From Eledone cirrhosa (lineage: Eukaryota): a DNA stretch of 64,000 bases. The stretch's first letter is position 1, and each line of letters opens with the position of its first letter. The notes under the pieces were generated by a model. That model was not told the DNA's origin and searched no databases. It was given only the letters and a program-made list of their open reading frames with translations. The DNA lies in NCBI GenBank assembly GCA_964016885.1, contig OZ024740.1, positions 242,110,001 to 242,174,000 on the forward strand, given 5' to 3'. Below are positions 5,100-27,406 of the stretch, one piece after another. The translations under genes and the position numbers were made by a program.

Positions 5100-5835
5100 T
5101 AAACAAAATAATTAAAGTATCATGTGTATACCTAGCAGGAACATACTGGTCAGAAATATGCTACCACCTTTATGAGGTTCTAAGTAAAGACGAGTGGTTT
5201 GAGTGGAAATGGTTAAATACAGAGAAAGTAACAAAATGTATTGAAAAGTCATATTCAATAATAATCATTCCGCGTTGCAAATAGCTTTACAGAAATGAAG
5301 CTCTAGTTGCACTATTTAGCAATAACCTTTTGATTAAATCCGTATTTGTGTTTGATTGAAATAGCATTTAACGATAACTCATTTGGGGAACGGAAAACTA
5401 AACGAACGGCCAATTAGACAGGAAACATGTGCAGGCGATTTCTTGTGTATTTCTGTGTACAAAGAGGATAACAATGTTTGTACAATTGGTTAGATTTTGT
5501 ACACTATTGCATATAAATTCTGTAGTTATAGTTACACTTATCTCATATACTTACACATCGCTGTGTAAAAATACTTATTGTTTAATCATACCAACGATGA
5601 ATACACACTATGCTCATTAGACTAGCCATTCAGTTATATCAAAGCTTGTATTTGATATATATCTCTTTGTGTAAAGAAGGATAAGAGCTTAAAGTAATTT
5701 GGTATATTTTTCTTTGTAAAAGAGGGAATAACAATGATTTTCTTCTTTGCTTAAATGTCCATAGCCTACCTAGAATTGTACGTGCATAAAGCGTATTTTC
5801 TTATATACCGTGTGTATATTCATTATATTATTATA

Positions 5836-13211: not shown

Positions 13212-13253
<42 letters not shown>

Positions 13254-13255
<2 letters not shown>

Positions 13256-15076
13256 AGTTGCATTTATCTTGCTTTATGTTCATACGAGTTATCACCAAGT
13301 CACAACCAGTGACCTCAAGAGACAACAAGGTCCGCCATATTCAAGAAAGAACATACATATTCACACATGCATCCTTAGTGTTTAGACTTGTGATGTACTT
13401 ATATTGACAGAATCTTCCTTAGTATATGGGCAGTTCCCATTAGTACTATCTTTTGTATTTCTCCTATACGCGGGTTTCCTGGGATTTGCGATAAGTAGTC
13501 ATTAGACCCCTTAGGTATCATTCCCAGAGCGCCTACAACCACTGGTATTGTTTTAGTTCTCAATTTCCACATTTTTCCAATTTCTATCTCCAGGTCCTTA
13601 TACTTGCTCAATTTTTCAAATGTTTTTATAGATACATTCTTGTCTATTGGAACGGACATATCAATTAGCAGGCATACCCTCTTTTTAAAGTCCTTCAGTA
13701 TTATATCAGCTCTATTTGCATCTATTTTTCGGTCTGTTTGGATGCTAAAGTTCCACAAGATTGAGATGTGATCTTTTTCAAGTATGGGAGGTGGTTGATG
13801 CTCCCACCAATTCTTTTGATGGGGCAGGTCAAAATGCTTACACATTATCCAATGTATGTATTGTGCAGCTCTGTCATGCCTGTTTAGGTATTCGGTTGGA
13901 GCTATAGGACTGCACATTGAAATTATATGGTCAATGGTCTCTGGTTGTTTTTTACATACACGGCATAATGGGCTGCACCCATTTTTTATTATGTTGGCTT
14001 GGTAATTTTTTGTTGGCAGACACTGATCTTGTGCCGATATAATCAGTCCTTCAGTCTCCGATTTCAGTCCAGAGGATGCCAACCACTGATGGGTTAAAGT
14101 TTTGTCAACATCAGGATTGTTAGCTCTTTCTGGGTATTTTCCATACAGAGGCTTTTCTTGACATTTCTTAGCCAGTTTCTGTAGCAGTTTTTTCGTTGCA
14201 GTTACTTTTACCTGCTTTGCTTTTTCTGTGTTTTCCATTTCAGCAGTAAATGGGACTTCTGAAATATGTAGTCCATTACTGTATCTTTGTGCATCTTTTG
14301 TAATGGAATATGATCTTTTGATGCTTTCGTGTTTCAAAACGAGTTTGATTATCTAATCATATGATTCGCTTAGATATGTAGATAATGCAATTGTTGCAGT
14401 TTTCAACGCAATATCTAACTGGATTAACCCACGTCCTCCTTTCATTCCTAGGGAGATATATTCTATCTGTATCTGCCTTAGGGTGATGCATTCTGTGCAT
14501 GGTTAAGAATTTTCGGATTTTTGTATAGCGCCTACGGATCTCTGTGCTTGACCAGTTGATGACATTGTAACTGTAGGTTACTACTGGTATGGCAAGCGTG
14601 TATGGCATCGATTCTATTCCTTGTATTCAATTCCGTTCTTAAGATTGCTCTTACTCTGCGGTAACATTCCTTCCTTATCCTTTCCCTCATTGTCGAGTGC
14701 TTGATTCCGTCTCCTTCACAAACACCTAGATATTTGTAAGTTTTTTCTTGATCAAGTTCTCTTATCACGTACCCCCGATCAAGATTAATGTCTGAACTCT
14801 TCAGCAGCTTTCCTCTGGTGAACATTGCTTTGGCGCGTTTATCTAGTCCAAACTCCATTTTAATGTCATCACTGAACTGCTCCACAGTGGATAATAGCCC
14901 TTGCAATTGTTCATCCTTTTCTGCAAATAGTTTCAGGTCATCCATGTAGAACAGGTGATTAATGGTTTTGTCATAGACTTTATATCCATGTTTTGTTTCA
15001 TTGAGTATTTTACATAATGGTATAAGTGCGATGCAGAATAAAAGCGGTGATAAAGAGTCACCCTGAAAAATTCCAC
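13254..15076 (-). mobile_element. Dong/R4-clade RLE retrotransposon family B, 5'-truncated, frameshifted
   Basis: GIFQGDSLSPLLF, HLFYMDDLKL, CRVCKKQPETIDHIISMC, RHD, NRADII..LIDMSVP..KLSKY, PVVVGALG; (TAA)n tail. Confidence 0.9.
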
Positions 15077-15259
15077 GGTGAATCCATTTCGATGTCACGA
15101 GATAATTTTTTTTTGTTTGTTTCTGTTGTCGCTGTGGTGGTGGTGGGGGTGGCGGCTTCAACACCTGCAGTCATTGGTAATGGCGGGAAATGAATGTCTG
15201 CATGAGTCAAATTTAAATTAATGCTACTGCTTATATTTGTAGTGTTGGCAAACGTAGTA
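15077..15259 (-). mobile_element. Tx1-B ORF1 segment fused to the 5' end of Dong-B
   Basis: Reverse complement of ~21823-22013 (TTFANT..HADIHFPPLPMTAGVEAATPTTTT). Confidence 0.85.
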
Positions 15260-15282
15260 TTATTATTATTATTATTATTATT

Positions 15283-15597
15283 TGTTGAAAGATGGGTGAG
15301 AGAAGCAAGAATGGCCCGAGTGAATTGGCCTACTCTGAGTATGTGTCTGTAAATTAAAGGTGGAAAACTGCGAGAGGGCACTTGCCCTGGTGGTCAGAGT
15401 CACTGTGGCCTTTTAATGGGCTTTCTCCACAAATGTCCCTCCGAAGTCTCCCCCCTATTGGGGAATTTTTCATTGTTATTTTTATTACAACCTCTGTTTT
15501 TGTTTTTTACACGCAGAGATGCCCATTTGTACCGTCCTGTATTGTCCTGTACTATCCTCAATGTCTACTTTATGTAAACCCTTGTGGTTAATAAAGA

Positions 15598-15600
<3 letters not shown>
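15283..15600 (+). mobile_element. Tx1-like LINE family B, 3'-end fragment
   Basis: Matches 27056-27357; ends CCCTTGTGGTTAATAAAGAAAG-(TAT)n. Confidence 0.88.
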
Positions 15601-15625
<25 letters not shown>

Positions 15626-15628
<3 letters not shown>

Positions 15629-15736
15629 CAAATCCCGCCGAGGTTGACTTTGCCTTTCATCCTTACGGGGTCGATAAAATAAAGTACCAGTAATGCACTG
15701 GGTAATTGCTGGCCTTGTGCCTAAAGTAGAAACAAT
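15626..15736 (+). mobile_element. tRNA-derived SINE, 5'-truncated, in (ATT)n
   Basis: TTCAAATCCCGCCGAGGTTGACTTTGCCTTTCATCC...GCTGGCCTTGTGCCTAAAGTAGAAAC; matches 27431-27617. Confidence 0.88.
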
Positions 15737-15773
15737 TATTATTATTATTATTATTATTATTGTTATTGTTATT

Positions 15774-18533
15774 CCTTGAATCTCAGTCATTGATGTTGGT
15801 TAACTGGAAAGTCCGTTGGATTGAATATCAAGCCACTACCTGCAGCCTCAGATATTCAGGACGTATCGGAGGGTTCTTGCCGTTCCAAGCAAGCATGCCT
15901 TTTGAAGCGTTCCAAAAAGCGTGAAGGGGCCGATTTTCTTTAACCATCCCTGGAAACCTTTGGAGATAGTCCCCAGTGCGCCTATGACAATCGGGATCAC
16001 TTTGACTTCATGGCAGTTCCAAATCCTTTTCACCTCCCACTTTAGGTCCTGGTATCGGTTAATTTTCTCCCTCTCCTTCTCTTGCACTCTCGTGTCGAAC
16101 GGGCAGGCCACATCCACAATCAGGCACGATCTTTTTTCTTTGTCCACAACCACCAGGTCAGGTCTATTGTGTTCCAGTTTTTTGTCCGTCTGTATCCTAA
16201 AATCCCACAGCACCTTCACCTGACTGTTCTCCATCACCGCCTCTGGCCTATGCTCATACCATTTCTCAGAATGTGGTAGATTGTTTACTTTGCACAGGTG
16301 GCAGTGGATCACCCTGCCCATCACATCGTGTCTCCAGCCCTTATAGTGGGTCTGGGCTAGGTGTTTACACTCGGACACAATGTGAGCCACAGTCTCCTCT
16401 CTCTCTCCACAGATCCTGCACAGTGGGCTAGCCTCCTCCTTGTAGATATGGTGCTTCAACCACTTCGTTTTGAGGGCCTGCTCCTGCGCAGCCATTAGCA
16501 TTCCTTCTGTAGCCTTTTTGAGGTCTCCTCTTCTCAACCAGTTCCATGTCTGTGGATCTCTAAATTCAGTTTTCTCAAAGAAGGTACTATGAAGGGATTT
16601 TCCCTTAAGGCTGCTCTTCCTCCTTGATGTTATTTCCTCCTTGGGTATCCCCTGGCCTACTGTCCCCTCCTTCAGTACAGCTCTGAGCATTGGCTCCTTA
16701 CTATAGGTCACGTATTTGTATAGGTTGTTTTTCTCCATCTGAACACAGTCCTCTATGCTGATAAGACCTCTTCCACCCTCAGATCTCCTTAGGTAGAGTC
16801 TATCGACATCACTCCTCTTGTGGAACATGTTGTAGATAGTCAATAGCTTCCTAGTCTTCCTATCCATTTCTTTTTGTTCAGCAACATTCCATCTCAGAAT
16901 TCCCGCACTGTACCTAATAATAGACACAGCTCGGGAATTTACTGCGCTTATGGCATTTCTGCTGTTCAGATGTGACTTCAATACGCTCCTTACTCTCCGA
17001 ATGTATTCAGTTCTTAACAATTCCTTCATTTTTTTGTTCTTTATGCCATCAGCCTCCAGAACGCCCAAATACTTGTATCCTTCCTCAGAGTCAATTTCCT
17101 TTATCATCTCACCTGTTGGTATCTGGATCCCGTTACTTCTGCTCAACCTACCCCTCCTCATCACAATGACTCCACATTTACCAATACCAAACTGCATACA
17201 TATATCACTGCTGAAAATACGGACAGTGTCAACAAGCACATCCAACTCCTTCTCACTTTTCCCGAAGAGCTTAAGATCGTCCATGAAGAGGAGGTGATTG
17301 ATGGTAAGCTCTCCCCTTCCCAACTTGTATCCTGCTCTCACTTTTCGCAGCATAATGGTCAAGGGCATCAGGGCAAGGACAAACAACAGAGGGGACAGGC
17401 TATCTCCCTGGAAGATACCTCTCTTGATCTTCACGCTTCCCAAGGATACTCCAGTTGATGTCAACTCTGTCTCCCAGGACCCCATACTCCTGCCCAGCAA
17501 CTGTCTGATGTTATCTGCCACCCTGAAGATCTCCAGGCTTTTGGTGATCCAGGAATGAGGCACCATGTCAAATGCCTTTCTGTAGTCTATCCATCCCATG
17601 GCAAGATCAGTGTGTCTCCTCCTGCAATTCCCCATTACCATCTTATCAATAAGCAACTGGTCCTTTGTACCACGTGACTTCTTTCGGCATCCTTTCTGTT
17701 CGTCCGGCAACAAGTTGTTTGTGTGGAGGTGATGGTAGATTTCCTCAGACACAATGCTCGTCAACAGTTTCCACATTACGGGCAGACATGTGATAGGTCT
17801 ATAGTTGGTAACATCATTACCCTTGATTCGGTCTTTCATTATCAGAACTGTGGTACCTTTTGTCAACCACTCTGGCACCTCACCCGACACCAAGCAGTCA
17901 TTGAACATGGCCGTCAGCTTCGGGTGGAGGGATGTTAAATGTTTAATCCAATACCCCTGCACACCATCTGGGCCTGGTGATTTCCAGTTGGTTAGTTTTT
18001 TGGCTTGCCCCTTAAGAGTTTCAACTGTGATACTCAAATCAGTCTGTTGCTGTGCCTGCTCACCGATCTCCCTCTGTACTGTCTCAATCCACCCTGCCTG
18101 GGCATTGTGTCTAACATCCTGCTCCCATATTCCTCTCCAGAATGTTTTAGCTTGTTCCGCCCCAGGGATCAAGTCGTTGCCTCTTTCTTTCCCCTCAAGC
18201 TGTCCAAACAGCATCTTCTGGTTGTTGTCGAACATGCGGTTCTGTTTATACTGACTGACTCTGTTCTCGTATCGCCTGATTTTGGCACTCTTTGCTACAA
18301 TGCGTTGCTTCAATTCCTCTATGATAATATTTAGCTTTTTACTCCTAGTTTTGTATTTTATTTCCAGTCTATTTTTAGTGCCTATGTTTTTTAGTGTCCC
18401 ATTCAGTAGTGACTCAAGCTTTCCTATGTCATTTCTCATTTCCCCGATTTGCCCACTCAGTCGCTTCTTCCACCACGGCTCTGCTCTTTCTTGTCTGTTG
18501 TTTCCTCTCGCTTTTATACCAAAGCGAGAGGTA
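15774..18533 (-). mobile_element. Dong/R4-clade RLE retrotransposon family A, copy 1 (5'-truncated, ORF uninterrupted)
   Basis: Bounded by ATT tracts; ~75-nt 3' UTR ending AATAACAATAAC(AAT)n. Confidence 0.93.
15848..18439 (-). CDS. RT + CCHC zinc knuckle + restriction-like endonuclease polyprotein (N-terminally truncated; frame stays open to ~18530)
   Basis: SPGPDG, NYRPITCL, WIDYRKAFDMVPH, GIFQGDSLSPLLF, FMDDLK, GGRGL, CRICGEREETVAHIVSEC, RHD, RPDLVVVD..IVDVACP..KINRY. Confidence 0.9.
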   Translation of the reverse strand: MRNDIGKLESLLNGTLKNIGTKNRLEIKYKTRSKKLNIIIEELKQRIVAKSAKIRRYENRVSQYKQNRMFDNNQKMLFGQLEGKERGNDLIPGAEQAKTFWRGIWEQDVRHNAQAGWIETVQREIGEQAQQQTDLSITVETLKGQAKKLTNWKSPGPDGVQGYWIKHLTSLHPKLTAMFNDCLVSGEVPEWLTKGTTVLIMKDRIKGNDVTNYRPITCLPVMWKLLTSIVSEEIYHHLHTNNLLPDEQKGCRKKSRGTKDQLLIDKMVMGNCRRRHTDLAMGWIDYRKAFDMVPHSWITKSLEIFRVADNIRQLLGRSMGSWETELTSTGVSLGSVKIKRGIFQGDSLSPLLFVLALMPLTIMLRKVRAGYKLGRGELTINHLLFMDDLKLFGKSEKELDVLVDTVRIFSSDICMQFGIGKCGVIVMRRGRLSRSNGIQIPTGEMIKEIDSEEGYKYLGVLEADGIKNKKMKELLRTEYIRRVRSVLKSHLNSRNAISAVNSRAVSIIRYSAGILRWNVAEQKEMDRKTRKLLTIYNMFHKRSDVDRLYLRRSEGGRGLISIEDCVQMEKNNLYKYVTYSKEPMLRAVLKEGTVGQGIPKEEITSRRKSSLKGKSLHSTFFEKTEFRDPQTWNWLRRGDLKKATEGMLMAAQEQALKTKWLKHHIYKEEASPLCRICGEREETVAHIVSECKHLAQTHYKGWRHDVMGRVIHCHLCKVNNLPHSEKWYEHRPEAVMENSQVKVLWDFRIQTDKKLEHNRPDLVVVDKEKRSCLIVDVACPFDTRVQEKEREKINRYQDLKWEVKRIWNCHEVKVIPIVIGALGTISKGFQGWLKKIGPFTLFGTLQKACLLGTARTLRYVLNI

Positions 18534-18563
18534 TATTATTATTATTATTATTGTTATTGTTAT

Positions 18564-21037
18564 TCCTTGAATCTCAGTCATTGATGTTGGTTAACTGGAA
18601 AGTCCGTTGGATTGAATATGAAGCCACTACCTGCAGCCTCAGATATTCAGGACGTATCGGAGGGTTCTTGCCGTTCCAAGCAAGCATGCCTTTTGAAGCG
18701 TTCCAAAAAGCGTGAAGGGGCCGATTTTCTTTAACCATCCCTGGAAACCTTTGGAGATAGTCCCCAGTGCGCCTATGACAATCGGGATCACTTTGACTTC
18801 ATGGCAGTTCCAAATCCTTTTCACCTCCCACTTTAGGTCCTGGTATCGGTTAATTTTCTCCCTCTCCTTCTCTTGCACTCTCGTGTCGAACGGGCAGGCC
18901 ACATCCACAATCAGGCACGATCTTTTTTCTTTGTCCACAACCACCAGGTCAGGTCTATTGTGTTCCAGTTTTTTGTCCGTCTGTATCCTAAAATCCCACA
19001 GCACCTTCACCTGACTGTTCTCCATCACCGCTTCTGGCCTATGCTCATACCATTTCTCAGAATGTGGTAGATTGTTTACTTTGCACAGGTGCCAGTGGAT
19101 CACCCTGCCCATCACATCGTGTCTCCAGCCCTTATAGTGGGTCTGGGCTAGGTGTTTACACTCGGACACAATGTGAGCCACAGTCTCCTCTCTCTCTCTC
19201 CACAGATCCTGCACAGTGGGCTAGCCTCCTCCTTGTAGATATGGTGCTTCAACCACTTCGTTTTGAGGGCCTGCTCCTGCGCAGCCATTAGCATTCCTTC
19301 TGTAGCCTTTTTGAGGTCTCCTCTTCTCAACCAGTTCCATGTCTGTGGATCTCTAAATTCAGTTTTCTCAAAGAAGGTACTATGAAGGGATTTTCCCTTA
19401 AGGCTGCTCTTCCTCCTTGATGTTATTTCCTCCTTGGGTATCCCCTGGCCTACTGTCCCCTCCTTCAGTACAGCTCTGAGCATTGGCTCCTTACTATAGG
19501 TCACGTATTTGTATAGGTTGTTTTTCTCCATCTGAACACAGTCCTCTATGCTGATAAGACCTCTTCCACCCTCAGATCTCCTTAGGTAGAGTCTATCGAC
19601 ATCACTCCTCTTGTGGAACATGTTGTAGATAGTCAATAGCTTCCTAGTCTTCCTATCCATTTCTTTTTGTTCAGCAACATTCCATCTCAGAATTCCCGCA
19701 CTGTACCTAATAATAGACACAGCTCGGGAATTTACTGCGCTTATGGCATTTCTGCTGTTCAGATGTGACTTCAATACGCTCCTTACTCTCCGAATGTATT
19801 CAGTTCTTAACAATTCCTTCATTTTTTTGTTCTTTATGCCATCAGCCTCCAGAACGCCCAAATACTTGTATCCTTCCTCAGAGTCAATTTCCTTTATCAT
19901 CTCACCTGTTGGTATCTGGATCCCGTTACTTCTGCTCAACCTACCCCTCCTCATCACAATGACTCCACATTTACCAATACCAAACTGCATACATATATCA
20001 CTGCTGAAAATACGGACAGTGTCAACAAGCACATCCAACTCCTTCTCACTTTTCCCGAAGAGCTTAAGATCGTCCATGAAGAGGAGGTGATTGATGGTAA
20101 GCTCTCCCCTTCCCAACTTGTATCCTGCTCTCACTTTTCGCAGCATAATGGTCAAGGGCATCAGGGCAAGGACAAACAACAGAGGGGACAGGCTATCTCC
20201 CTGGAAGATACCTCTCTTGATCTTCACGCTTCCCAAGGATACTCCAGTTGATGTCAACTCTGTCTCCCAGGACCCCATACTCCTGCCCAGCAACTGTCTG
20301 ATGTTATCTGCCACCCTGAAGATCTCCAGGCTTTTGGTGATCCAGGAATGAGGCACCATGTCAAATGCCTTTCTGTAGTCTATCCATCCCATGGCAAGAT
20401 CAGTGTGTCTCCTCCTGCAATTCCCCATTACCATCTTATCAATAAGCAACTGGTCCTTTGTACCACGTGACTTCTTTCGGCATCCTTTCTGTTCGTCCGG
20501 CAACAAGTTGTTTGTGTGGAGGTGATGGTAGATTTCCTCAGACACAATGCTCGTCAACAGTTTCCACATTACGGGCAGACATGTGATAGGTCTATAGTTG
20601 GTAACATCATTACCCTTGATTCGGTCTTTCATTATCAGAACTGTGGTACCTTTTGTCAACCACTCTGGCACCTCACCCGACACCAAGCAGTCATTGAACA
20701 TGGCCGTCAGCTTCGGGTGGAGGGATGTTAAATGTTTAATCCAATACCCCTGCACACCATCTGGGCCTGGTGATTTCCAGTTGGTTAGTTTTTTGGCTTG
20801 CCCCTTAAGAGTTTCAACTGTGATACTCAAATCAGTCTGTTGCTGTGCCTGCTCACCGATCTCCCTCTGTACTGTCTCAATCCACCCTGCCTGGGCATTG
20901 TGTCTAACATCCTGCTCCCATATTCCTCTCCAGAATGTTTTAGCTTGTTCCGCCCCAGGGATCAAGTCGTTGCCTCTTTCTTTCCCCTCAAGCTGTCCAA
21001 ACAGCATCTTCTGGTTGTTGTCGAACATGCGGTTCTG
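18564..21037 (-). mobile_element. Dong-A copy 2 (5'-truncated; 2-bp CT insertion frameshift at ~19190)
   Basis: Near-identical to copy 1; ORFs 19148-21103 and 18639-19214. Confidence 0.93.
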
Positions 21038-21148
21038 GGTTGTTGTCGAACATGCGGTTCTGGGTTGTTGTCGAACATGCGGTTCTGGGTTGTTGTCGAA
21101 CATGCGGTTCTGGGTTGTTGTCGAACATGCGGTTCTGGGTTGTTGTCG

Positions 21149-21149
<1 letters not shown>
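21013..21149. repeat. 25-bp tandem repeat (5 full units + 12 bp) at the 5' junction of Dong-A copy 2
   Basis: GGTTGTTGTCGAACATGCGGTTCTG; present once in copy 1 (18220-18244). Confidence 0.95.
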
Positions 21150-21207
<58 letters not shown>

Positions 21208-21208
<1 letters not shown>

Positions 21209-21567
21209 TGAGTCTCAGTCACTGATGTTAGTTAACTGGAAAGTTTGTTGAAATGAATATCAAGCCACTACCTGCAGCCTCAGATATTTAGGACGTATCG
21301 GAGGGTTCTTGCTGTTCCCAGCAAGCATGCCTTTTGAAGCGTTCCAAAAAGCGTGAAGGGGCCAATTTTCTTTAACCATCCCTGGAAACTTTTTGAGATA
21401 GTACCTAGTGCGCCTATGACAATCGGGACCACTTTGACTTCTGGCAGTTCCAAATCCTTTTTACCTCCCACTTTAATTCCTGGTATCGGTTAATTTTCTC
21501 CCTCTCCTTCTCTTGCACTCTCGTGTCGAATGGGCAGGCTACATCCACAATCAGGCACGATCTTTTT
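21208..21567 (-). mobile_element. Dong-A copy 3, short and more diverged 3' fragment
   Basis: VVPIVIGALG..LQKACLLGTARTLRYVLNI plus 3' UTR; (TAA)n tail. Confidence 0.88.
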
Positions 21568-21742
21568 TAAATCGTATCATCGGGAGCTCCGCAAAGGTTT
21601 GTTGTTTTCAGTTGTTTCAAATTGCCATTTATGGAAAATGTTTGTTGTTAAGTGTTTATAAGGTCACATAATTTGCTTTCGGGCCTTGAGCCCAAAATTT
21701 ATACTTTTATAATTATCAAACAAAAATTAGTTTGAAAAAAAC

Positions 21743-23725
21743 ATGGACGACTCACAGCTACACCAGGCTGACAGCCTGCTTCACAAACTAATACCTCACA
21801 CCAACACCACCATTGTAAATATTACTACGTTTGCCAACACTAAAAATATAAGCAGTAGCAATAATTTAAATTTGTCTCATGCAGACATTCATTTCCCGCC
21901 ATTACCAATGACTGCAGGTGTTGAAGCCGCCACCCCCACCACCACCACAGCGACAACAGAATCCCCCCCCACCAAAAAAAAAAATTATCTCGTGACATCG
22001 AAATGGATTCACCCAAAATCAACTCTTCCACACCGAACACCTCTGACGCCACGCCACGCCACCACCACCACAACTGAAACTAAAAATAAAAATAACAAAA
22101 ATACCAATAATAACAACAGCAACAACAACAATGAGAATAACAACACCTTGTTGTTTGCCAAAGCAGCCAAAAAATGCGAAACAATCTAGGTAACTCAGGA
22201 GGAATTAAATGAAACCAAGAGAATGGTAAAGAAAGATGGGTACAGGGTCGCCCCCCCCCCCCCCCCCCCGACCCCCACCCCCCACCTAATAAAATGGAGC
22301 ATCGGCGCCTATGCACCGTGTCTTATCGGACGATTAACATAAAATCGCGCCGAGTGGAACGGGCATCCGAATCCCAAATCCGAAAAGCTTTGGGACATGT
22401 GTGGGCAAAAAAATCCACATCAGACGTGGGCAGAAATATAGAACCGTGGACGTGTTCTTTGGAACACGACAGGAGGCCAGAGAGCACTCCATGGCCCCAT
22501 TAAGAAGCGACGACTTCACACTCGTCCCAAGCTATTGTGGCCAGATACTCGTAAAGATCAGGGTGACCCACAATCCACCGGCCATCGAAATTCCCTGGCG
22601 AATGGCTGCCGTCCTCGCCGGCATCGAGGCCAACACCAAAATAATAGAAATAGCAAAAGAAAAGCAGGAGAACTGGTCCGGATCTGGGATGGAGCTCTTG
22701 ATCCAAGCGGACCAAAAAAGCATTGAGGAGATCCCAGGGGTAATATACCTCACTGACGGCAGCCACCTCACCATAATCGTCGAGGGTAGAAGGCCTAGGT
22801 GTGTCGTTTGTGGTGAAGGAACCCACCAAAGGGCTTTCTGCCTTCAGGCTAAAAAGTTGAGGCCACCTCTCTTACCCACCCCAGTGACTCAACCATCAAC
22901 ACCACCAGCAGCAGAAATGGCAGCAACATATGTAGCAGCAACAACAGAAGCAACTGTGGCAGCAACAACCCCAGCAACAGTCGCAAAACCAACACCACCA
23001 CCACCAAACGCGCCAGAACTAACACCAGTGCCTACACAATCCACCACGCCACAACCAAAACCAACGCCTGTGGAGAATTTTCCACTCCCCGACCTATCGC
23101 AACTGGAGACAGATTGTGACGACGAGGAGTGGGTAACGGTATCAGGAAATAAGAAAAAAAAGAAAAAGAAGCCAAAAAAGAAAAAAATCCTCTTCCTTCC
23201 CCCTCCAAAAACAAAATATTGAGGGAAACAAATAAACTATCAAACAAAAAAGTTAGGACAGCTATGTCACCATCCACACCAGCATCACCAACCCCATCAC
23301 CACAAATACCAACACCATCACCATCATTAACCCCAACACCATCATCACCAACACCACAAAAGTCACCAAAAAGCGAAACAGAAACAAACCCACAACAAAC
23401 GCAGACAAAACAAAACAACCAAAACGATACACACTACACAACATTAAATTTGAACAACAACCAATTATTACACTACATCCAACACAACACCAGCATCACA
23501 GAAAAAGACTACAGAACACCCCAAAAGTTCACACCACCTCCACACATACAAATCATTCGCATCACACAGAAAACGTACACGACACTAAAACAAAAATTCC
23601 CCAAAGACATCGGAGACTTCCGACAAGCACTCTCCAGGAGGATTTATAAGGACATCCTTCCGGAGGAGGCCTCAAGCAGTGAAAAGGATGGAGAAACCAT
23701 CCTTCCTCTACAAGAAGTAAGGTAA
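21743..23725 (+). pseudogene. Tx1-B ORF1 (gag-like; RRM-like region, CCHC knuckle, long Pro/Thr-rich tail), frameshifted
   Basis: IIVEGRRPRCVVCGEGTHQRAFC (C-X2-C-X4-H-X4-C); lies directly upstream of APE. Confidence 0.75.
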
Positions 23726-23759
23726 GTGGTCTTTCCCATCTTTTCCATTCCATTTCAAC

Positions 23760-26700
23760 ATGACCTCACTCAGAATAGGCAGCATAAATGCGTGTGGCTT
23801 GGGGTCACCATGGAAGCAGGGCTGACTACTCATCGACCTCAGGTCACTAAACATAGATGTAGTGGCCATCAGCGAGATCAGAATCTCCGAAGCACAGGCC
23901 TTCGCACCGATCTTCGGCGGCTACGATGTGTGCGCATCTCCCAGCCGTCCTGGATCGGGGGGGGGGGGGAGTTGCTGTGCTTTTTCGAAGAGGTTTGGAT
24001 CTCGCTATACGGGCCATCTTCCTGGATCCAGAACCCAGCAGGTAAGTTGGTGGTGCTGGACGTGACCAGCAGAGACGGGCAAGCTTTCAGGCTAGTGGCG
24101 GTCTATGCGCCGACAGGAGCAGGGCGGCCTGATTTCTTCCGGCGTCTGGAGACCTTTCTTGGAACATCCCGCTCTTTAGTGTTAGTGGGCGACTGGAACG
24201 GGATCTTAGATGCACGCTGGGACTGTTTGGGATTAGCGGATAGGGGAGGAGGGTGCAAGAGCCTCACCAACCTGCGTTTTGAACCGTCTGATAGGTACCG
24301 ATTGGATTTCCCGAATGTGCCAATGTGGACTTGGACAAACCGCGTCGGGTCATCCAGATCATATCTAGATAGAGTATTTTGTAGGGAAATAGATAGGTCT
24401 AGCATAGGCTGTCCACAATTCAAGATAGTCAGCTACACGGGCCACAAATTCGTGATCTGTGTCCTTGACTTAGATAGGCTTCATAGACGAGGACCCGGCT
24501 ACTGGAAGCTAAACGCGTCCTCAAGAAGCGCGCAAAGCCAACAGAGACCGGGTTAGCGAACTAGTTAAGCGGGCGTTGACGGGGGCCATCGTCAACAACA
24601 AGTGGCGGTGTGCTCTGAAAAGAGCGATTAGAATAGAGTTCATTAGGTTTAGTAAGGCTTTAGCTATAGAGAAAAATAGAGCAGAGGGTGAACTAGTTAG
24701 AAAATTAGACGAGGCGCTTAGCAAAGGCATCGTGACCGACGTACTTCCGGCGAAATTGGCCCTTGACCAATTCTTCAATGCAAAGCACGAAGGCTGCGTT
24801 GTCAGAGCTAGGGTGCGTGCTCTCAGACACGAGGGGACGAAAGCCGTTAATAGGCCCAAGTGGCGGAGGCGCGTCCTAGCAACAAAGCCACGATCCGGTC
24901 TTTGGTGGACCACGAAGGGCGCATGCTACTCGATCCCGGACAAATGTGTGAAGCTTTTCGCTCAACTGTTCTGGGGCAACGGGGGGACGGATCGAGGGAT
25001 GGACTTTAGTGTCTACCTCGACGGATTGCTGCGGCTCTCGGCCACTGAGGCAGAGTGTTGCGAAAAGCCGATAACAGCTGCTGAAGCACGGGAGGCAATG
25101 ACTGGCTGCACAAGGGTTAAATCACCTGGTTTGGATGGTCTGCCCTATGAATTTTACGTACAGATGCCAGACTTGTTCGGAGGCCTCTTGGCGGACGTCT
25201 ACTGCAACTGGCAACAGAACGGGAGAATTCCCAGCTCTGTGAGCCGAGGAGCTGTGGCGTTGCTGAGAAAGGATCCGAACAAGGGGTATAACGTAGATAA
25301 TTTCAGGCCCATAACATTGCTAAACACAGAGTTCAGATTTTGGCCAAGGTGCTTGCAAAGAGGTTGGCGCTTGTCGTTGGTGGTCTGGTGAGAGAGGCGC
25401 AGATATGCGCCATTCCCGACAGATCCATCCACGACAACCTCCACTTCATGCGATACATCGTAGAGAGGGTAGCTAGGGAACCTGGCAGGGGTGGGTCCTT
25501 GATCAATTTAGATCAGTCGAAAGCTTTCGATAGGGTCGACCAACGTTACCTAGCGGCAGTCGTGAGAGCAGCCTGCTTTGGGCCCGTCTTCAGAGGCTGG
25601 ATCGCTGCCATGCACAGCGACATCTGCTCTGTAGTGAGGGTGACCGGTCACCTTTCGGAACCGCTCAACATCATGCGCTTGGTCCGCCAAGGATGTCCCC
25701 TCTCGTCCCTCTTGTATATATTTACTCTCGAGTCATTACTGCACAAACTGGAGACGTTGAGGGGGTCCCGTGCGAACTAGGATGCGGAAGATCGGTGTCA
25801 GCATATGCGGACGATGTCACCGTAGTGGTATCGAACGCCAAACACATCGAGGCGATCGGCACTACACTAAGAGAATACGAAGCGGTGACAGGAGCAATGA
25901 TCAACCAGGAAAAGTCAGTGGGCCTGCAGCTCGGCACCTGGAGAAGCAGGTCCATGCCGTCCAACAGCGTCGTTGGGCGCTGGACGGACGGACCGGTTAA
26001 ATTGCTAGGAGTCTGGTTCGCTCCGGACCTCCAGACGGACAAAAACTGGGACGAGGGCAGAGAGGAAGCTATCCCTGAAAGGTCGAGCGAGGGTGTCTAA
26101 CGCGTACATCGCCTCCGTCATCTTCTACCGCCTGATCGTCGTACTTTGTCCTAAGCCTCGCCTGACTCCGCTGGAGCGTTTGCTCTTTCGCTTTTTGTGG
26201 AAGGGACGCGCTCCGATGGTCAAGCGGTCCATCTTCTGTCAACACCCGCTACGTGGAGATCTGAGCATGCCGTGGCTGATGATGCGCAGACACGCGCTCA
26301 GGCTACGACATCTCTGCCTCTTCCTCGACGGTGATCAAGTGTGGTCGCCGTTTGCTAGACGCGTCTTTCCCCAGCTCGTCTCCTTGACGGAGCGGCAGTC
26401 CTGGGTCAAGCGAAGACCGAGAGGGAGCGCTTGGAGACTGGAATGTCTTCAGACGCTCACAACCCTCGACCAATCGGGCAATGTGATCGGTGGAAACTCC
26501 ACCTTGGCGTTCTATATAGGATGAGTGGATAGGAAGAGCGACGACGTAATTGGGGAAACTCTAGGCGTCGACGAAAATCAACTAGCCAATCTCTTCGGAA
26601 GAACTTTCGGGCCCGGGCCTATGGATAACTTCCAGACATCCCTGGCAGTGCTACCGAGGAGCTTTGCCTTTTCGGGATAAACTCGACAGGCATGGAGGTG

Positions 26701-27127
26701 CCGTCAGCCGGGCATGTCCGAGATGCGCGCAGGGCGACGAAACCGTCCTGCACGCACTCGTCCAGTGTCCGAGCATTGCTGACTTGTGGGTTTATGTCGA
26801 ACACCTGCTGTCGCGTGTAGGACGGATCCAGCTATCAGCTGAGTCCATCGTGAGGATTCCCCCGCCCTCTTCCTTTAGCCGGGAAGGGTAGGCAGTTTTT
26901 ATCTGTCTGGTGGTCATGGCGAAATAGTATGGTGGACACGTTTGAAAGGGCTGAAGACGAGCACTTACCTCTTCGGTGATGCCCTGATTAACTTTTTCAA
27001 ATTTCATTTGAAAAGGAAAATCAGAGTAGAGAGGGAAGTGCTCTCTACCCAGCATTTTGTTGAAAGATGGGTAAGAGAGGCAAGAATGGCCCGTGTCTAT
27101 GGGCCTACTCTGAGTATGTGTCTGTAA
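23760..27127 (+). pseudogene. Tx1-B ORF2 (APE endonuclease, RT, CCHC), multiple frameshifts
   Basis: MTSLRIGSINACGL, VAISE, AVYAP, LVGDWN, SYLDRV, GPGYWKLN, KSPGLDGLP, SAYADD, CPRCAQGDETVLHALVQC. Confidence 0.9.
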
Positions 27128-27357
27128 ATTAAAGGTGGAAAACTGGGAGAGGGCACTTGTCCTGGTAGTCAGGGTCACTGTGGCTTTTTAATGGGCTTTC
27201 TCCACGACGTCCCTCGGAAGTCTCCCCCTATTGGGGAATTTTTCATTGTTCTTTTTTTGTTACATCCTCTGTTTTTGTTTTTTACACGCAGAAATGCCCG
27301 TTTGTACCGTCCTGTATTGTCCTGTACTGTCCATAATGTCTACTTTATGTAAACCCT

Positions 27358-27406
27358 TCAGTAATGCCCTGGGTAATTGCTGGCCTTGTGCCTAAAGTAG
27401 AAACAA
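27358..27406 (+). mobile_element. SINE 3' tail fused directly to the clipped Tx1-B 3' UTR
   Basis: ..TAAACCCTT|CAGTAATGCCCTGGGTAATTGCTGGCCTTGTGCCTAAAGTAGAAAC. Confidence 0.8.

Follow-up and report, generated by a model that had tools for sequence, protein, structure and literature searches.

A Tx1-B ORF1 Segment at the 5′ Junction of a Dong-B Insertion in Eledone cirrhosa Is Probably an Inverted Copy of Flanking DNA

The window analyzed here is a 64,000-nt stretch of the Eledone cirrhosa genome (GenBank assembly GCA_964016885.1, contig OZ024740.1, forward-strand positions 242,110,001 to 242,174,000). From 10.7 to 29 kb it consists of stacked non-LTR elements with (ATT)n/(AAT)n runs between them; Dong-A and Dong-B lie on the minus strand, and Tx1-B, Tx1-C, and a SINE on the plus strand (Table 1). 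Judged by their sequences, Dong-A and Dong-B are RLE-type elements (R2/R4-like) without an APE. The best PDB matches of Dong-A were R2 proteins (1e-30, versus 1e-13 for L1), and Dong-B was 50% identical to Dong-A in the RT and 40% in the C-terminus, with CCHC and PD-(D/E)xK-type motifs present. Tx1-B, an APE-type element like Tx1-C, matched Exo_endo_phos (APE) and RVT_1, and the RT of the related Tx1-C was nearest to L1 ORF2p; a search of the ESM Atlas returned generic RT clusters only. The names Dong and Tx1 are those of a first-pass annotation of this DNA and were kept for resemblance to published clades rather than assigned from an RT tree. Dong of Bombyx (R4 lineage) is described as sitting in TAA repeats (PMC3774820), the Tx1 clade as APE-bearing and target-specific (PMC4640811), and both Dong-R4 and L1-Tx1 as recently active in Octopus vulgaris (PMC13282606). 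Like Bombyx Dong and the Octopus Dong-R4, Dong in the window is a single R2-like ORF in (AAT)n, and Tx1-B, like the L1-Tx1 clade, is an L1-like APE+RT element. Two Dong-A copies (15743-18244 and 18534-21037) are arranged in tandem, are 99.8% identical, and are very young, reflecting either a local duplication or two insertions from the same source. At one Dong-A 5′ end (21009-21149), a 25-bp unit is repeated 5.7 times; similar re-priming repeats occur at two other loci (L054 and L253).

Table 1. Features of the array around the Dong-B/Tx1-B junction (window coordinates).
Position	Strand	Feature
13212..13254	.	(ATT)14 / (AAT)14, tail and target at the Dong-B 3′ side
13255..15077	-	5′-truncated Dong-B: R2-like RT, CCHC finger, PD-(D/E)xK-type motif; frameshifted; 26/1814 private substitutions
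15077..15077	-	Inner junction, 1 nt common to both parents
15078..15257	-	Captured Tx1-B ORF1 segment, element nt ~272-459, Tx1 sense in Dong orientation
15258..15282	.	(AAT)8 upstream target, its end overlapping the Tx1 piece by 2 nt; likely priming site
15281..15600	+	Separate 5′-truncated Tx1-B 3′ end, usual polarity; 7/315 private substitutions
15627..15741	+	SINE fragment, Tx1 polarity; 1/104 private substitutions
15743..21568	-	Three Dong-A insertions between the captured piece and the candidate donor
21569..27358	+	Near full-length Tx1-B (APE + RT), lacking the first 15 nt at the Dong-A junction; 82/2580 private substitutions
21823..22013	+	Candidate donor segment, compatible with the captured piece

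Read along the minus strand, (AAT)8 gives way to Tx1-B ORF1 sense sequence that passes without a spacer into the Dong-B RT, and the junction described in the first-pass annotation is thus real in the assembly. The Tx1-B part matched window positions 21823-22013 with 92.4% identity over 197 columns (BLAST and alignment), segment 15077-15259 being the reverse complement of that interval. Breakpoints were placed by comparison with 23 other Dong-B and 5 other Tx1-B copies. The purely Tx1 part spans 15257-15078 (180 nt) and, together with the shared base at 15077 and the shared TA at 15259-15258, agrees with the length of ~183 bp given earlier. The inner breakpoint lies at 15077/15076, where the C at 15077 is attributable to either parent (C in 4 of 23 Dong-B copies and T in the remainder; C in 4 of 5 Tx1-B copies). 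The comparison with Dong-B copies that had been proposed for this base therefore yielded a microhomology of 1 nt, within an imperfect similarity of 5/7 (ATTCACC vs. ATTAATC). At the outer junction, the anticipated similarity to the target was found as 2 exact nt (TA) and an imperfect 6/7 match (AATATTA vs. AATAATA); the first kb of Tx1-B offers a match of this type at 23 of 993 positions, by a criterion chosen after seeing the junction. The foreign part is in RNA sense, 5′ of Dong-B, and inside one target site. As first reported, it is the sole Tx1 sequence in Dong orientation within the window, and it is internal rather than a 3′ end, covering nt ~270-460 of the 5.8-kb element; with its end at ~nt 460, it does not start at or near a transcript 3′ end.

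The peptide SKWIH/RGIFQ, put forward earlier as the join between ORF1 and the RT, proved not to be in the ORF1 frame, which reads LSRDIEMDSP before the junction and, in 4 of the 5 Tx1-B copies compared, is also the frame of the ORF1 ATG. In the chimera, the ORF1 frame meets a stop 5 codons past the junction, while the Dong RT frame is closed by a stop ~31 codons upstream and lacks a Met ahead of the RT core. No Pfam domain was found in the parent Tx1-B ORF1 stretch, and the Dong-B ORF is broken further downstream as well. An in-frame ORF1-RT coding fusion was rejected because the parts are out of frame and lack a start codon and a domain. The locus encodes nothing, has not spread, and is biologically inert.

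Both junctions were sought in the whole genome (3.0 Gb, 1,796 contigs). The inner junction gave one match with 2 mismatches allowed, the outer junction gave one (exact, with one IUPAC site), and among 40 scored genome matches the two halves of the chimera occurred together in the window only. As both junctions are single-copy, a multi-copy hybrid or mobile family was rejected. The genome contains at least 4,615 copies of Dong-B, and 5′ ends were visible in 99 of the first 100 listed. An automatic rule assigned 73 of these to repeat within 25 nt, 13 to same-sense Dong, 11 to other or unannotated sequence (some of them full-length copies on inspection), and 2 to a mixed class; Tx1 in sense orientation was seen at none of the 99. 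At 25 listed non-repeat Dong-B junctions, no inverted local copies were found except a TA repeat, and the downstream flanks of L077, L109, L092, and L118 held no donors. In the first set of loci, 68 of 69 Dong-Tx1 adjacencies were of opposite polarity, the exception being the window chimera, and 44 of the 69 were head-to-head pairs in this sample, which is enriched for Tx1 5′ ends. Genome-wide, the window was the sole match to a pattern placing (AAT)4 at most 320 nt ahead of a 20-mer at Tx1-B nt 340, compared with 1,025 reverse-strand matches at one row for each locus, or ~2,000 loci by estimate, for the normal-polarity (ATT)4 version. Wrong-polarity probes gave 0 matches at Tx1-B nt 1121 and 2 at nt 2847, neither of them a chimera. 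A wrong-polarity search with the Tx1-B 3′UTR produced 138 rows, from which 36 distinct loci were annotated, or about three-quarters of the candidates (19 of 24 reverse-strand rows fell among the 36). These were mostly chance neighbors, repeat-polarity switches, and Tx1 5′ inversions, with one chimera (L215/L237). Neither the 36 wrong-polarity loci nor the 99 Dong-B 5′ ends included a tailed Tx1-B 3′ end joined to Dong in sense orientation. In the open-access literature, we found no report of Dong/Tx1 chimeras.

The L215/L237 chimera consists of (AAT)11, 135 nt of Tx1-B sense sequence, a 4-nt filler, and a near full-length Dong-A, beyond which follow (AAT)7, a SINE piece, and a Tx1-B of normal polarity. 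The captured piece differed from this downstream neighbor at 1 of 135 sites and from each of 32 other copies at 6 or more, and the two had in common four alleles absent from all 32. The donor lies 199-333 bp past the Dong-A 3′ end, and the piece is the reverse complement of L237 positions 5280-5414. With 4/135 private substitutions against 2/2699 in its Dong-A, the piece looks far older than the insertion it adjoins (p=7e-5), as expected if an old neighbor was copied. By its sequence, the L237 chimera is most simply an inverted copy of the neighboring Tx1-B from a DNA template, and it is the one sister chimera with a traced donor (n=1). Its donor is on the downstream side, that of the window, if the local copy served, on the upstream side.

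Relative ages in the window were taken from private substitutions and compared by Fisher tests, and they depend on the subfamilies sampled. The captured piece (3/164) and Dong-B were indistinguishable in age (p=0.73). The Tx1-B at 21569-27358 was older than Dong-B (p=2e-4), and the two long Dong-A copies (5.4 kb; 11/5183) were younger (p=2e-8); the short Dong-A3 (3/360) gave p=0.46 against Dong-B. Given one (AAT)n site and indistinguishable ages, the piece and Dong-B most likely came from one insertion event. Of the earlier proposal, capture during Dong insertion thus stands as the most likely course, and the Tx1 RNA template assigned to it is not supported. The candidate donor is 6.5 kb away today, but 5.4 of the 6.3 kb of spacer is younger Dong-A. 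Because the donor is older and the spacer younger than Dong-B, the donor would have been ~0.3-1.4 kb upstream of the nick at that time, in head-to-head orientation; on these relative ages it was present and within resection range (<10 kb) when Dong-B arrived.

The local Tx1-B is compatible, by its alleles, with having been the donor. All three private substitutions of the captured piece fall within 164 non-tract sites, at which the local copy (21823-22013) has none, and 3 of 58 other Tx1-B copies were as close as the local copy (3 differences each). Lacking any private allele at these sites, the local copy is not singled out as the donor. The only rare alleles of the local segment are in a C-rich A tract, and the captured piece lacks them; this tract is highly variable among Tx1-B copies and uninformative for the choice of donor, and we regard the mismatch as neutral to mildly against a local donor. 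If the local donor is the true one, the tract would have changed later than the insertion or would reflect an assembly quirk. Dating the C tract through a subfamily link between the local Tx1-B and the L154 copy was uninformative, the two having only tract alleles and one other in common. Conversion of A or mixed tracts to long C runs was seen at 21962-21973 and 22251-22283 and also at L154 and L121, by slippage or as a base-calling quirk. No identical source of the captured piece was present among the 40 best genome matches (up to 96%).

On balance, we consider that the window piece is probably a repair-templated inverted duplication of flanking Tx1-B DNA at the Dong-B 5′ junction. Dong and Tx1 target (AAT)n in opposite polarity, and so the 5′ ends of the two commonly point at each other; with a Tx1 5′ flank facing Dong, any inverted copy of that flank lands in Dong orientation. 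The captured piece indeed comes from the part of Tx1-B that, in head-to-head pairs, lies toward the Dong 5′ end. In the sequence of events that we envisage, Dong-B would have nicked the repeat and made a truncated cDNA of 1.8 kb. The upstream end would then have been resected, and its (AAT)n 3′ overhang would have folded back on its own strand at AATATTA in the nearby Tx1-B. Extension of the folded-back end by 180 nt, away from the nick, would give Tx1 in sense orientation, to be joined to the cDNA through 1 nt. Alternatively, the cDNA end may have primed, giving the same product and a better fit for L237. Either the Dong RT or a host polymerase, for instance Pol theta, could have carried out the synthesis. 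A local copy is favored because the L237 piece was traced to the neighboring Tx1-B, and a DNA copy because both captured pieces are internal, as opposed to R2 jumps, which are described as landing on template 3′ ends.

The first-pass annotation held that the Dong-B RT jumped from its own RNA to a Tx1-B RNA fragment during target-primed reverse transcription, a course that we judge unlikely. It accounts for the sense orientation, which both the window and L237 pieces have and which RNA templating likewise predicts, and the 1-nt inner overlap fits low-homology jumping as described in PMC8857657. The captured piece is also near the family majority and of the same age as Dong-B, re-priming repeats are found at other Dong 5′ ends (in the window and at L054), and RNA chimeras made by LINEs are on record (PMC2104539; PMC2912911; the 'extra template' class of PMC11371274). 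Against this, an internal piece calls for a broken RNA, the testable sister chimera at L237 used a local copy, and a tailed Tx1-B 3′ end fused to Dong sense was absent from the 36 loci and the 99 5′ ends, with the probes at nt 1121 and 2847 empty of chimeras. Transcription of the local copy itself would also give local alleles. With L237 copied from its neighbor and the window piece derived from the Tx1 5′ region facing a Dong 5′ end, neither a Tx1 RNA template nor the co-expression of the two elements drawn from it is supported, and a junction that is out of frame, single-copy, and domain-free does not bear out a realized route for domain shuffling between RLE and APE elements. An improbable course of another kind is that Tx1-B twin priming with almost no first cDNA made the piece and that Dong-B inserted beside it later, deleting (ATT)n and a few bases. 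Tx1-B 5′ inversions do exist (L184, L223, L224, and L226), Dong insertions do take away the target repeat together with 1-18 nt from a Tx1 5′ end (window 21568, L012, and L019), and an AAT occurs 3-5 nt past the inner breakpoint in Tx1-B. However, two events are required; the four simple inversions keep a sense 3′ end, have gaps of 5-55 nt, and end at U-rich nt 5696-5697, unlike the window piece; none of the 36 loci showed a piece standing alone between two (AAT)n runs with neither Dong nor a Tx1 3′ end; and the L237 chimera, with its end at this U-rich position, turned out to be copied from its neighbor.

A later DNA rearrangement, or a repair-templated insert from a distant Tx1-B, independent of or remote from the local array, appears highly improbable. 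A repeat-free Dong/Tx1 deletion junction (L167) and an internal Tx1 inversion (L247) show that rearrangements occur, and 2-3% of Pol theta inserts are reported to come from distant sites (PMC5068794). A simple inversion, however, would place (AAT)n on the plus strand, where (ATT)n is read on both sides, and a simple deletion needs a same-sense Tx1, which only the window has among ~2,000 loci at the probe; the captured piece and Dong-B are, moreover, equal in age. Repeat orientation and polarity counts thus disfavor the DNA inversion or deletion between adjacent full elements that had been named as a possible refutation. An assembly or chimeric-read artifact is extremely improbable in our view. 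The region is dense in repeats, and none of the 24 listed of ~9,800 pieces from 4 runs bridged 15077, but these runs came from one or more other individuals (word share ≤0.46). Three private substitutions with no identical donor in the 40 best genome matches are unlike a mis-joined read, the bounds at the target repeat are clean, and a sister structure exists.

Among known systems, the chimera most likely belongs with the 5′-junction scars of non-LTR insertion rather than with template-jump chimeras, a family, or a coding fusion. For L1, inverted duplication or inversion of the reciprocal end is described with homology at the fold-back and none or little at the cDNA junction (bioRxiv 10.1101/2024.12.14.628481). 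Like the L1 inverted duplications of that account, the window case would have a flank copied inverted at the 5′ junction, with short fold-back homology, ~1 nt at the cDNA, and a candidate donor in resection range. It differs from those cases in that the element is of the RLE type, the genome is germline-inherited, and the flanking DNA belongs to a retrotransposon from a different clade, so the scar mimics an inter-clade chimera; small hairpins were used in the L1 duplications described there, whereas the window case would need a loop of hundreds of bases. In R2 PRINT insertions, 'snap-back' is described in which priming by the end of the cDNA, either on cDNA itself or on target DNA close by, gives an inverted product (PMC11371274). 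The enzyme there is R2-like, as is the Dong RT, and L237 fits such priming of a cDNA end on nearby DNA. The R2 'extra template' described in the same work is almost always U6 RNA, from or near its 3′ end, whereas the pieces here are internal parts of retrotransposons in natural insertions, and R2 template jumping is described as directed onto template 3′ ends (PMC8857657). Chimeric retrogenes made by LINEs include WEIRD, MGL, and Mg-SINE in Magnaporthe (PMC2104539) and U6-L1 (cited via PMC11371274). The window case is like these in carrying same-sense foreign sequence 5′ of a truncated LINE in one target site, but they are described as recurring often from abundant RNAs, whereas the window junction is single-copy and L237 was traced locally. 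Templated insertions of Pol theta are described as primed by single bases on flanks and as typically <25 bp long and <20 bp from the break (PMC5068794); single-base priming and a flank-derived template would be common to them and the pieces here, which differ in being 135-183 bp long and in having their donor, or candidate donor, at least 200 bp away.

The scar is most likely a one-off, non-coding structure and no new hybrid element. A chimera in the same sense at the 5′ end of a LINE is often interpreted as an RNA template switch, and in arrays of opposite polarity an inverted DNA copy looks alike; the donor alleles at L237 show how the two readings can be told apart. Diverged neighbors act as barcodes, by which the template of natural 5′-junction repair becomes readable for an RLE element. 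A wider reading, which we regard as quite unlikely, is that such arrays give rise time and again to hybrids of Dong and Tx1 in the same sense under a Dong 3′ end, and that transcription and remobilization could follow for some of them or for genuine RT jumps onto Tx1 RNA. As part of that reading, RLE and APE elements in one microsatellite with opposite polarity would place every inverted neighbor copy in the reading direction of the other clade. Were it true, there would be a working exchange route for promoters and domains between the two deepest LINE lineages.

Several other Dong and Tx1 junctions were recorded. At L118, L271, and L108 (G000:C1, ~65.45, 67.99, and 62.85 Mb), which make up 3 of the 99 Dong-B copies, a Dong-A 5′ part is fused to a Dong-B 3′ part in the same sense with no repeat between them, by a template switch between Dong RNAs or a deletion between tandem copies. 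The 5′ UTR is similar in the two families, and fusion of Dong-A with Dong-B is a likelier recombination route than fusion of Dong with Tx1. Twin-priming-type Tx1-B 5′ inversions were found at L184, L223, L224, and L226, and in all four of these simple cases the inverted part starts at one U-rich site, nt 5696-5697. At window 21568/21569, L012, and L019, a Dong-A 5′ end directly adjoins that of a Tx1-B, with loss of the repeat and of 15, 1, and 18 nt of Tx1, respectively; intact Tx1-B starts ~15 nt further upstream, straight after (ATT)n. At L092, a Dong-B 5′ end meets the start of a (CATA)n-associated repeat through a 3-nt join; compared with a copy lying 0.7-1.2 kb upstream, this repeat carries two internal deletions. 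At L058, L062, L249, L256, and L268, (AAG)n lies beside Dong-B 5′ ends, either replacing (AAT)n or grading from it. L167 is a repeat-free, tail-to-tail deletion junction between Dong-B and Tx1-B, and L247 carries an 84-bp internal inversion in a Tx1-B that faces Dong-B. Finally, short (AAT)n in the 5′ flank of Tx1-B 3′ fragments at L214, L219, L205, L210, L216, and L225 represents a local flip in repeat polarity, possibly by snap-back onto the element's own tail.
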